The notes beneath the pieces are model-generated. The model did not search any database and was not told the DNA's origin. It saw only the letters and a program-made list of their open reading frames with translations. From Eledone cirrhosa (taxonomy: Eukaryota), in the NCBI GenBank assembly GCA_964016885.1, contig OZ024746.1:53940001-54004000 (forward strand): DNA of 64,000 bases, in the 5' to 3' direction. This document shows, one piece after another, positions 24,472 through 29,880 of this stretch. The stretch's first letter is position 1, and every line of letters begins with the position of its first letter. Both the position numbers and the translations under genes were made by a program.

Positions 24472-27400
24472 AAACTGATACGTGCATATATGTATGTGTA
24501 CCTGTATGCATATGTATGTATATATGTATATATATATATATATATGTGCATGCTACTGTACGTCTGTATACATATGTGTATGTACGTATACATGCATACT
24601 TACATTTAAGTAAGTGCCATACTAAGAGTGAGAAATGAAATTTCGTTTTCATTTTGTTTCAATTTATCGTTTTCGGTATGCCTGACCGATTTAACTCACT
24701 CAATATGCAAATTAGGCTGCTCAGCCGTTAATTTTCATAAGGAAAGTATATACTTTCGAACGTTCAACTATCTGGCAGATGGGTAAACGGTGCTGATGAT
24801 AGCTAACAAGCTTGAAACTAGTACATCGTTCCTGTGTCAGTGTTGAACAAAAAGGTGACGTGGTTGCCTTAACACCGTATGGCATAAATTCAGGCTGTTC
24901 AGTTTGTTTACAAACGAACAAAGCGACGTTATAATAAGCGCCGCTAAACTGATACGTGCATATATGTATGTGTACCTGTATGCATATGTATATATATATG
25001 TATATATATATATATATATGTGCATGCTACTGTACGTCTGTATACATATATGTATGTACGTATACATGCATACTTACATTTAAGTAAGTGCCATACTAAG
25101 AGTGAGAAATGAAATTTCGTTTTCATTTTGTTTCAATTTATCGTTTTCGGTATGCCTGACCGATTTAACTCACTCAATATGCAAATTAGGCTGCTCAGCC
25201 GTTAATTTTCATAAGGAAAGTATATACTTTCGAACGTTCAACTATCTGGCAGATGGGTAAACGGTGCTGATGATAGCTAACAAGCTTGAAACTAGTACAT
25301 CGTTCCTGTGTCAGTGTTGAACAAAAAGGTGACGTGGTTGCCTTAACACCGTATGGCATAAATTCAGGCTGTTCAGTTTGTTTACAAACGAACAAAGCGA
25401 CGTTATAATAAGCGCCGCTAAACTGATACGTGCATATATGTATGTGTACCTGTATGCATATGTATATATATATGTATATATATATATATATATGTGCATG
25501 CTACTGTACGTCTGTATACATATATGTATGTACGTATACATGCATACTTACATTTAAGTAAGTGCCATACTAAGAGTGAGAAATGAAATTTCGTTTTCAT
25601 TTTGTTTCAATTTATCGTTTTCGGTATGCCTGACCGATTTAACTCACTCAATATGCAAATTAGGCTGCTCAGCCGTTAATTTTCATAAGGAAAGTATATA
25701 CTTTCGAACGTTCAACTATCTGGCAGATGGGTAAACGGTGCTGATGATAGCTAACAAGCTTGAAACTAGTACATCGTTCCTGTGTCAGTGTTGAACAAAA
25801 AGGTGACGTGGTTGCCTTAACACCGTATGGCATAAATTCAGGCTGTTCAGTTTGTTTACAAACGAACAAAGCGACGTTATAATAAGCGCCGCTAAACTGA
25901 TACGTGCATATATGTATGTGTACCTGTATGCATATGTATGTATATATGTATATATATATATATATATGTGCATGCTACTGTACGTCTGTATACATATGTG
26001 TATGTACGTATACATGCATACTTACATTTAAGTAAGTGCCATACTAAGAGTGAGAAATGAAATTTCGTTTTCATTTTGTTTCAATTTATCGTTTTCGGTA
26101 TGCCTGACCGATTTAACTCACTCAATATGCAAATTAGGCTGCTCAGCCGTTAATTTTCATAAGGAAAGTATATACTTTCGAACGTTCAACTATCTGGCAG
26201 ATGGGTAAACGGTGCTGATGATAGCTAACAAGCTTGAAACTAGTACATCGTTCCTGTGTCAGTGTTGAACAAAAAGGTGACGTGGTTGCCTTAACACCGT
26301 ATGGCATAAATTCAGGCTGTTCAGTTTGTTTACAAACGAACAAAGCGACGTTATAATAAGCGCCGCTAAACTGATACGTGCATATATGTATGTGTACCTG
26401 TATGCATATGTATATATATATGTATATATATATATATATATGTGCATGCTACTGTACGTCTGTATACATATATGTATGTACGTATACATGCATACTTACA
26501 TTTAAGTAAGTGCCATACTAAGAGTGAGAAATGAAATTTCGTTTTCATTTTGTTTCAATTTATCGTTTTCGGTATGCCTGACCGATTTAACTCACTCAAT
26601 ATGCAAATTAGGCTGCTCAGCCGTTAATTTTCATAAGGAAAGTATATACTTTCGAACGTTCAACTATCTGGCAGATGGGTAAACGGTGCTGATGATAGCT
26701 AACAAGCTTGAAACTAGTACATCGTTCCTGTGTCAGTGTTGAACAAAAAGGTGACGTGGTTGCCTTAACACCGTATGGCATAAATTCAGGCTGTTCAGTT
26801 TGTTTACAAACGAACAAAGCGACGTTATAATAAGCGCCGCTAAACTGATACGTGCATATATGTATGTGTACCTGTATGCATATGTATGTATATATGTATA
26901 TATATATATATATATGTGCATGCTACTGTACGTCTGTATACATATGTGTATGTACGTATACATGCATACTTACATTTAAGTAAGTGCCATACTAAGAGTG
27001 AGAAATGAAATTTCGTTTTCATTTTGTTTCAATTTATCGTTTTCGGTATGCCTGACCGATTTAACTCACTCAATATGCAAATTAGGCTGCTCAGCCGTTA
27101 ATTTTCATAAGGAAAGTATATACTTTCGAACGTTCAACTATCTGGCAGATGGGTAAACGGTGCTGATGATAGCTAACAAGCTTGAAACTAGTACATCGTT
27201 CCTGTGTCAGTGTTGAACAAAAAGGTGACGTGGTTGCCTTAACACCGTATGGCATAAATTCAGGCTGTTCAGTTTGTTTACAAACGAACAAAGCGACGTT
27301 ATAATAAGCGCCGCTAAACTGATACGTGCATATATGTATGTGTACCTGTATGCATATGTATATATATATGTATATATATATATATATATGTGCATGCTAC

Positions 27401-29880
27401 TGTACGTCTGTATACATATATGTATGTACGTATACATGCATACTTACATTTAAGTAAGTGCCATACTAAGAGTGAGAAATGAAATTTCGTTTTCATTTTG
27501 TTTCAATTTATCGTTTTCGGTATGCCTGACCGATTTAACTCACTCAATATGCAAATTAGGCTGCTCAGCCGTTAATTTTCATAAGGAAAGTATATACTTT
27601 CGAACGTTCAACTATCTGGCAGATGGGTAAACGGTGCTGATGATAGCTAACAAGCTTGAAACTAGTACATCGTTCCTGTGTCAGTGTTGAACAAAAAGGT
27701 GACGTGGTTGCCTTAACACCGTATGGCATAAATTCAGGCTGTTCAGTTTGTTTACAAACGAACAAAGCGACGTTATAATAAGCGCCGCTAAACTGATACG
27801 TGCATATATGTATGTGTACCTGTATGCATATGTATATATATATGTATATATATATATATATATGTGCATGCTACTGTACGTCTGTATACATATATGTATG
27901 TACGTATACATGCATACTTACATTTAAGTAAGTGCCATACTAAGAGTGAGAAATGAAATTTCGTTTTCATTTTGTTTCAATTTATCGTTTTCGGTATGCC
28001 TGACCGATTTAACTCACTCAATATGCAAATTAGGCTGCTCAGCCGTTAATTTTCATAAGGAAAGTATATACTTTCGAACGTTCAACTATCTGGCAGATGG
28101 GTAAACGGTGCTGATGATAGCTAACAAGCTTGAAACTAGTACATCGTTCCTGTGTCAGTGTTGAACAAAAAGGTGACGTGGTTGCCTTAACACCGTATGG
28201 CATAAATTCAGGCTGTTCAGTTTGTTTACAAACGAACAAAGCGACGTTATAATAAGCGCCGCTAAACTGATACGTGCATATATGTATGTGTACCTGTATG
28301 CATATGTATGTATATATGTATATATATATATATATATGTGCATGCTACTGTACGTCTGTATACATATGTGTATGTACGTATACATGCATACTTACATTTA
28401 AGTAAGTGCCATACTAAGAGTGAGAAATGAAATTTCGTTTTCATTTTGTTTCAATTTATCGTTTTCGGTATGCCTGACCGATTTAACTCACTCAATATGC
28501 AAATTAGGCTGCTCAGCCGTTAATTTTCATAAGGAAAGTATATACTTTCGAACGTTCAACTATCTGGCAGATGGGTAAACGGTGCTGATGATAGCTAACA
28601 AGCTTGAAACTAGTACATCGTTCCTGTGTCAGTGTTGAACAAAAAGGTGACGTGGTTGCCTTAACACCGTATGGCATAAATTCAGGCTGTTCAGTTTGTT
28701 TACAAACGAACAAAGCGACGTTATAATAAGCGCCGCTAAACTGATACGTGCATATATGTATGTGTACCTGTATGCATATGTATATATATATGTATATATA
28801 TATATATATATGTGCATGCTACTGTACGTCTGTATACATATATGTATGTACGTATACATGCATACTTACATTTAAGTAAGTGCCATACTAAGAGTGAGAA
28901 ATGAAATTTCGTTTTCATTTTGTTTCAATTTATCGTTTTCGGTATGCCTGACCGATTTAACTCACTCAATATGCAAATTAGGCTGCTCAGCCGTTAATTT
29001 TCATAAGGAAAGTATATACTTTCGAACGTTCAACTATCTGGCAGATGGGTAAACGGTGCTGATGATAGCTAACAAGCTTGAAACTAGTACATCGTTCCTG
29101 TGTCAGTGTTGAACAAAAAGGTGACGTGGTTGCCTTAACACCGTATGGCATAAATTCAGGCTGTTCAGTTTGTTTACAAACGAACAAAGCGACGTTATAA
29201 TAAGCGCCGCTAAACTGATACGTGCATATATGTATGTGTACCTGTATGCATATGTATGTATATATGTATATATATATATATATATGTGCATGCTACTGTA
29301 CGTCTGTATACATATGTGTATGTACGTATACATGCATACTTACATTTAAGTAAGTGCCATACTAAGAGTGAGAAATGAAATTTCGTTTTCATTTTGTTTC
29401 AATTTATCGTTTTCGGTATGCCTGACCGATTTAACTCACTCAATATGCAAATTAGGCTGCTCAGCCGTTAATTTTCATAAGGAAAGTATATACTTTCGAA
29501 CGTTCAACTATCTGGCAGATGGGTAAACGGTGCTGATGATAGCTAACAAGCTTGAAACTAGTACATCGTTCCTGTGTCAGTGTTGAACAAAAAGGTGACG
29601 TGGTTGCCTTAACACCGTATGGCATAAATTCAGGCTGTTCAGTTTGTTTACAAACGAACAAAGCGACGTTATAATAAGCGCCGCTAAACTGATACGTGCA
29701 TATATGTATGTGTACCTGTATGCATATGTATATATATATGTATATATATATATATATATGTGCATGCTACTGTACGTCTGTATACATATATGTATGTACG
29801 TATACATGCATACTTACATTTAAGTAAGTGCCATACTAAGAGTGAGAAATGAAATTTCGTTTTCATTTTGTTTCAATTTA
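24472..29880 (+). repeat. 11.4 x 474-bp tandem array, non-coding, one hammerhead per unit (non-LTR retrozyme-like)
   Basis: Exact 474-bp period, also visible in the ORF track. Units differ only at two linked positions as far as can be seen by eye. Confidence 0.95.
24788..24828 (+). ncRNA. Minimal type I hammerhead ribozyme; identical copies every 474 bp up to 29528-29568 (11 copies)
   Basis: cggtg-CTGATGA-t-agct(aaca)agct-t-GAAA-cta-GTA^-catcg. Helix III is the palindrome ACTAGT. Confidence 0.9.

Follow-up and report, generated by a model that had tools for sequence, protein, structure and literature searches.

A five-unit variant period in a tandem array of hammerhead-like units inserted into a (TA)n microsatellite of Eledone cirrhosa

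The window analysed here comprises 64,000 bp of Eledone cirrhosa (GCA_964016885.1, contig OZ024746.1, positions 53,940,001–54,004,000, forward strand; all coordinates below are those of the window) and represents microsatellite-rich animal DNA with frames of long interspersed nuclear elements (LINEs). It harbours a tandem array of 474-bp units, each full one with a hammerhead-like motif, which is preceded by an inverted copy of part of the unit and lies between two (TA)n tracts. Two unit types, A and B, alternate in a five-unit block. The features of the locus are:

24036–24094, no strand: left (TA)n target microsatellite
24095–24471, minus strand: inverted 5' arm of 377 nt, type B (unit positions 235–474 plus 1–137), starting at the second internal start site (~137)
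24472–29881, plus strand: 474-bp units in tandem, 11 complete and a last one of 196 nt, arranged as ABBABABBABAB and otherwise invariant
24472–26841, plus strand: higher-order block 1 (ABBAB, 2370 bp)
26842–29211, plus strand: higher-order block 2 (2370 bp), identical to block 1
29212–29881, plus strand: incomplete third block (one A unit and the first 196 nt of a B unit), ending at the recurrent reverse transcriptase (RT) start site, unit position 196
24518 in unit 1, plus strand: first variant site, at unit position 47 (type A, G; type B, A), in the predicted inner stem (partner U68)
24576 in unit 1, plus strand: second variant site, at unit position 105 (type A, G; type B, A), in the predicted outer stem (partner U20)
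24476–24592, plus strand: long predicted hairpin of 49 pairs, holding both variants and recurring in every unit
24786–24830, plus strand: motif resembling a type I hammerhead in unit 1, with the core CUGAUGA ... GAAA and a minimal, palindromic helix III; cleavage is predicted after 24823
29879–30142, no strand: right (TA)n target microsatellite

When the columns of the array were compared at period 474, counted from 24472, only unit positions 47 and 105 varied, each with the series G,A,A,G,A,G,A,A,G,A,G,A along the array. The two sites are fully linked (haplotype A, G/G; haplotype B, A/A), which would be expected by chance for independent sites in 1 of 792 cases. A shift of 2370 bp inside the array yields 0 mismatches over 3040 compared positions, compared to 8 mismatches at shifts of 948 and 1422, 12 at 1896, 10 at 2844 and 4 at 3318 bp. 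The array thus spans 5410/2370 = 2.28 five-unit periods. Two linked A/G positions (24518 and 24576) as well as the order ABBABABBABAB with a 2370-bp period repeated ~2.3 times had been described in an initial annotation made from the letters, and both descriptions hold; of the extent given there (24472–29820) the start is correct, while the array reaches slightly further at its end, to 29881. The contrast of TYTYV and TYIYV which it had read from the open reading frames stems from translated microsatellite DNA.

The ABBAB pattern is real in the assembled sequence and a chance origin is moderately unlikely, since a perfect period of two to six units occurs in only 6 of the 792 orders of five A and seven B units (0.8 %). 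The five-unit periodicity is notable, albeit not overwhelming, in view of the many windows scanned and of the orders without adjacent A units, among which 4 of 56 have period five (7 %). The lack of adjacent A units together with this latter fraction speaks for a route missed by the initial annotation, i.e., template jumping, in which an AB dimer circle was copied with two slips, or the enzyme switched among A and B monomers, the period of five being coincidental. Also in its favour, both variants lie in one hairpin, so that switches after the hairpin would keep them linked. However, ~18 % slips per unit would be required, and the raw likelihood of the observed order is 66-fold (dimer with slips) or 172-fold (random pool) lower than with a five-unit circle; this route is considered improbable.

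The inverted arm is 100 % complementary to B units and 99 % to A units, in agreement with its earlier assignment to type B. This type carries almost no information, a point missed in the initial annotation: it fits a period of five, but would occur with a probability of ~0.6 anyway. Five insertions of the family are found in the window (19081–20855, ~22800–23375, 24095–29881, 34703–35106 and ~58200–58370). Unit position ~196 adjoins (TA)n in 4 of them and unit position ~137 in 2, while 3 possess an inverted 5' arm (at 24095, 19081 and 34703–35106). The insertion at 19081–20855 is older and consists of an inverted arm (unit position 196 to 1) and ~3 diverged units, one of which displays a change of the hammerhead core from GAAA to GACA. 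The copies at 22800–23375 (minus strand), 34703–35106 and 58200–58370 include a more diverged subfamily, in which the U-U closure and both arms of helix II are kept. An end of the 58.2-kb copy at unit position 1, suggested by one alignment, was rejected after local alignment and sequence reading. The family is dispersed and present in high copy number, with five insertions in 64 kb and thousands of matching public contigs (5459 and 4988 in two runs of one sample). For one sample, 15 joints are listed in public contigs; 11 of these are additional junctions of the head-to-head kind, although their short sides measure only 21–28 letters at 92 % likeness.

Inverted 5' copies and (TA)n targets are features of Penelope-like elements (PLEs; Craig et al. 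2021, PMC8557442). One PLE protein (PAc) was described to nick and extend both strands in vitro, with two internal sites (Frangieh et al. 2024, PMC11167929). The inverted arm, the (TA)n flanks and the internal start sites therefore suggest that the element works like a PLE-mobilised non-LTR (long terminal repeat) retrozyme, and the best explanation of the locus is a non-autonomous hammerhead element retrotransposed by a PLE enzyme into a (TA)n tract. Two independent insertions (24472 and 19290) have a cDNA end at unit position 1, immediately before the 5' side of the long hairpin; this position is possibly a transcript start or a strong stop.

Two broken PLE-like frames at 4208–5895 (plus strand) and 50833–51804 (minus strand), with RT and GIY-YIG-like motifs recognized by eye, are candidate helper families. 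The latter contains a CX4CxxC linker and is accompanied by a hammerhead-like motif at 50550. A search within the 64-kb window for a sequence link between the unit and these two frames gave no hit near them. Three of four frames tested had no match in Pfam, and the 64 proteins retrieved as homologues of one PLE-like frame bore no informative names.

The 474-bp unit has a GC content of ~35 %, and no reading frame of at least 120 aa exists inside the array; a frame with RT and GIY-YIG domains, as in an autonomous PLE, was looked for in the array and not found. The unit is strongly folded (z = -9.5 versus shuffles). Since predicted folding is stronger for the plus strand (-159.5 kcal/mol) than for the minus strand (-121.9 kcal/mol), the plus strand is indicated as the RNA strand. 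The hammerhead-like motif, assigned by the established hammerhead consensus, recurs every 474 bp (11 copies) and is present once in the arm (24347–24391, minus strand). It is built from helix I with 7 pairs, the core, and helix II with 4 pairs closed by U-U. This U-U replaces the G10.1-C11.1 pair, which is described as highly conserved in hammerheads, whereas the short palindromic helix III corresponds to the form said to need dimers (PMC4209133). Helices I and II can form, but the minimum-energy fold lacks the hammerhead core. An Rfam search gave no ribozyme hit at the gathering score; the best match was HH9 with 18.5 bits and an E-value of 0.14, compared to a gathering score of 52, and hammerhead activity is therefore unproven. 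The putative ribozyme of the initial annotation, whose hammerhead-like core is present in all 11 full units, is atypical and below the Rfam thresholds. Collections of metagenomes, viruses and prokaryotes, searched with the core pattern, yielded 0 matches each. Rfam e-value matches to microRNA families originate from the TA-rich hairpin, were far below gathering scores and were rejected, as was a second ribozyme at unit position 1, considered by eye, which was without Rfam support.

Both variants are A-to-G changes on the ribozyme strand in UAU context, convert an A-U into a G-U pair, and lie at positions paired with a probability of 0.99–1.0 in the predicted 49-pair hairpin, a setting that had escaped the initial annotation. 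In the B form this hairpin already contains 8 G-U pairs and no single-base mismatch loop. Site 105 is A in all older copies of the window covering it, hence G is the derived state there; the polarity of site 47 is not determinable. The A haplotype may, tentatively, descend from adenosine-to-inosine (ADAR) editing of the hairpin, for which two sites are too few. The UAU context adds little, since 26 of the 32 stem adenosines have a 5' U neighbour, and A-to-G changes in stems also fit selection on RNA structure or ordinary TA/TG microsatellite change. Five identical A units with just two edits point to one template that was re-read or to one DNA variant, rather than to five independent editing events.

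Besides the A/B differences, arm and array contain 0 private changes in 5787 bp, and the longest TA run measures 18 nt in all 12 units. By contrast, the three units of the neighbouring array (3 × 399 aligned columns, microsatellite part left out) carry 11 private changes, one further change is common to two units, and the TA runs of its two full units measure 36 and 48 nt. For private mutations, the upper bound here is 0.05 % per site, while the neighbouring array has 0.9 %. Thus, the pattern most likely arrived with the insertion, and arm and array most likely represent one very recent insertion in which the A/B pattern was already present. If the changes in the neighbour postdate its insertion, mutation outpaces reshuffling in these arrays, and formation of ABBAB by DNA turnover becomes less plausible; if an old mixed source already contained them, they would instead support copying of a linear multimer.

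These data bear on later duplication at the DNA level, in which a shorter mixed insertion (ABBABAB) would have gained five units by one unequal crossover or slippage. Duplication of one five-unit block in any of 3 registers would turn ABBABAB into the observed pattern, the likelihood is within a factor of 3 of that of the five-unit circle under all three circle-size priors considered below, and local expansion by unequal crossover is the standard model for such arrays (10.64898/2026.07.22.740005). Nevertheless, the event must have preceded any private mutation (at most 0.05 % per site, against 0.9 % next door), the neighbouring array shares only one change besides its 11 private ones, and building ABBAB from a single mutated unit takes at least 4 duplications. 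A mixed seven-unit starting array would still require an origin at the RNA level. Later duplication is regarded as unlikely. In whichever form, an RNA template probably supplied the mixed pattern when the element was inserted.

The best reading of the locus is that a five-unit RNA circle was reverse-transcribed for ~2.3 turns, to which a probability of about 35 % is assigned. A single monomeric circle cannot give mixed units, as the initial annotation had argued, and A and B units are both present in the array. The pattern, the arm, the flanks, the shared start sites and the lack of private mutations are observed, while transcription, cleavage, circularisation, a helper enzyme and re-reading of the template are inferred. 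A source array would have been transcribed, and weak dimer-dependent hammerheads would have cut some junctions only, or monomers would have been religated, to give a circularised five-unit RNA of the order ABBAB. A PLE enzyme would have nicked both strands of the (TA)n tract, with internal starts at unit position 196 on one strand and ~137 on the other. The first cDNA would then comprise ~2.3 rounds of the 2370-nt circle and the second the 377-nt inverted arm, followed by head-to-head joining. For dimer-dependent type I hammerheads, multimeric RNAs were reported in vivo, ligation in vitro yielded a putative circular dimer, and circles were proposed as templates of tandem cDNA (PMC7229834).

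The raw likelihood of the order is highest for the pentameric circle (1.7e-2). A seven-unit array that underwent one duplication reaches 3.8e-4, copying of a dimer with slips 2.5e-4, and a random pool 9.7e-5. The three mechanisms named in the initial annotation (pentameric circle, multimeric transcript, later crossover) can be ranked only loosely, with the pentamer leading in raw likelihood and the crossover weakened by the lack of private mutations.

Several observations weigh against the five-unit circle. With three geometric priors on circle size, its ratio becomes 8.3, 1.8 or 0.5 relative to the dimer with slips and 2.7, 0.8 or 0.3 relative to one duplication, neither series being decisive; if five-unit circles are assumed to be rare, the lead in likelihood therefore vanishes. 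The missing G10.1-C11.1 pair and the weak HH9 score belong here as well. Multimers up to a trimer and a circular dimer only, and no pentamer, are mentioned in the passages of PMC7229834 consulted. Eleven passes across a hammerhead on the circle need silent ribozymes. Unit position 1 forms the 5' end of the array and recurs as an end of the neighbouring arm, and could mark where a linear RNA had its 5' end. Finally, for the one PLE tested, ribozyme cleavage was unneeded and unprocessed RNA was the main template (PMC11167929), which favours a linear multimer.

According to such a linear route, a source array already ordered as ABBAB would have given rise to an uncleaved transcript of at least 5.4 kb, which was copied once. 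The period would then go back to the source, where either a circle or a duplication of DNA had created it. It fits the data as well as the re-read pentamer. Unprocessed RNA was the dominant PLE substrate in vitro, with the ribozyme inactive in the absence of protein (PMC11167929), PLE-type hammerheads are described as being of low activity (PMC4209133), and 8 of 9 Xenopus retrozyme dimers were uncleaved (preprint 10.64898/2026.07.22.740005). The shared start at unit position 1 agrees with it, although two coinciding ends among ~8 are weak evidence (~0.18, estimated by hand). An abundant contig with G105 in a second sample (see below) would be expected if A units exist elsewhere. On the other hand, the question is only shifted to the source, and the period itself is left unexplained; copying of a linear transcript is considered somewhat unlikely.

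For comparison with public contigs from four of the 24 runs listed, none of which is listed as RNA, a 474-bp stretch covering the unit once was used, with site 47 left out (repeat zone) and the run type unrecorded. In a second sample (X10) of the same organism as the best-matching run, a contig of depth 121 corresponds to 24556–24648 with 0 differences over 93 letters and carries G105 together with the diagnostic bases of the array's subfamily; two other exact contigs of this sample have depths of 156 and 204. A polishing error at site 105 is therefore unlikely, and the G105 of this sample may reflect DNA variation or editing. The concern about polishing raised in the initial annotation is accordingly reduced for site 105, site 47 lying outside the comparison. 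The tabulated alternative letters have no entry at 24576, where an A would be expected, and are uninformative for this site. Sequence words of the unit occurred at shares of 0.37–1.0 among the runs listed, which derive from 15 organisms and one wastewater metagenome in 15 studies. This sharing, possibly due to close relatives or horizontal spread, is not used as evidence.

The same contigs bear on an assembly artefact, i.e., a five-unit block duplicated by the assembler or variants introduced by polishing. Assemblies of near-perfect arrays are known to go wrong by exact duplication of long blocks. The locus-specific junction is bridged by none of the 24 contig pieces listed, 10638 further pieces lying outside this listing. 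The unit order, which is not readable from contigs, is that of the assembly alone, and this point also counts against the five-unit circle. Moreover, complex PLE insertions trouble assemblies (PMC8557442). In contrast, the window contains no N and its long microsatellites are resolved, suggesting long reads able to span 5.8 kb. Furthermore, another sample has a contig with G105 that matches over 93 letters without difference, linkage of the two sites is perfect, and the end of the array coincides with the real start site of the family. An artefact is a distinctly improbable explanation.

Parts of the window may resemble octopus repeats, and further elements are present in it. Immediately right of the array, a different element (30143–31080) has inverted arms of 282–287 bp with 99 % identity between TA tracts; it is single in the window and has no CUGANGA core on either strand. 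An inverted repeat of 818 bp (97 %) at ~35215–37063, both arms of which contain a minimal motif of the hammerhead kind (35406, minus strand; 36872, plus strand), looks like another PLE-type insertion. An open endonuclease-RT LINE frame of 1028 aa (37194–40280, plus strand) has a near-identical broken copy in opposite orientation (32168–34690, minus strand).

Whether such arrays originate from circular RNA, from long uncleaved transcripts or from later DNA expansion has been proposed in the cited literature in each direction and is unsettled. Uniform arrays cannot separate these origins, whereas arrays with marker variants can. The present locus demonstrates that marked arrays exist in a young high-copy family, and a genome-wide count of variant periods would be a direct test. 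A single locus cannot prove the circular-template model, for which it is a usable test with several viable rivals. The combined scenario, in which a five-unit circle was copied by rolling-circle reverse transcription and the A units carry or descend from ADAR-edited hairpins, is improbable as a whole. If true, it would provide direct evidence for multimeric ribozyme circles as transposition templates and for A-to-I edits written back into the germ line, and could explain the drift of the family's hairpin by G-U changes only. Markers that are fixed RNA edits would constitute a route from editing to heritable change.

Compared to known systems, the element resembles metazoan non-LTR retrozymes (Cervera and de la Pena 2020, PMC7229834) in its low-GC, non-coding tandem units with a type I hammerhead-like motif, its strongly folded unit, its high copy number and the PLE coding remnants in the same window. 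Its 474-nt unit exceeds the 150–450 bp first described, but lies inside the range of 51–972 bp (Li, Clavereau and Pollet 2026, 10.64898/2026.07.22.740005). It differs by the U-U in place of G10.1-C11.1, by the two-haplotype higher-order period and by being known here from its sequence alone. With PLEs it shares the inverted 5'-truncated copy beside a tandem, the (TA)n target, two internal start sites and the short palindromic helix III of their hammerheads (PMC4209133). In contrast to PLEs, it has no RT or GIY-YIG frame, and its start sites are ~59 nt apart instead of 30–40.

Satellite higher-order repeats, such as primate alpha satellite, likewise consist of a multi-monomer block repeated exactly, yet with much more diverged monomers and formed by DNA recombination. 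The array shares with them the exact repetition of a block of several monomer types; its types, however, differ at only 2 of 474 bases, the block is repeated just 2.3 times, and the ends are those of a retro-insertion. Neither variants with a higher-order period in arrays of retrozymes or PLEs nor edited retrocopies of such elements were found described in the literature searched, which includes few subscription journals. Conditional on cleavage and expression, both putative here, the element would be a further member of the known retrozyme class.

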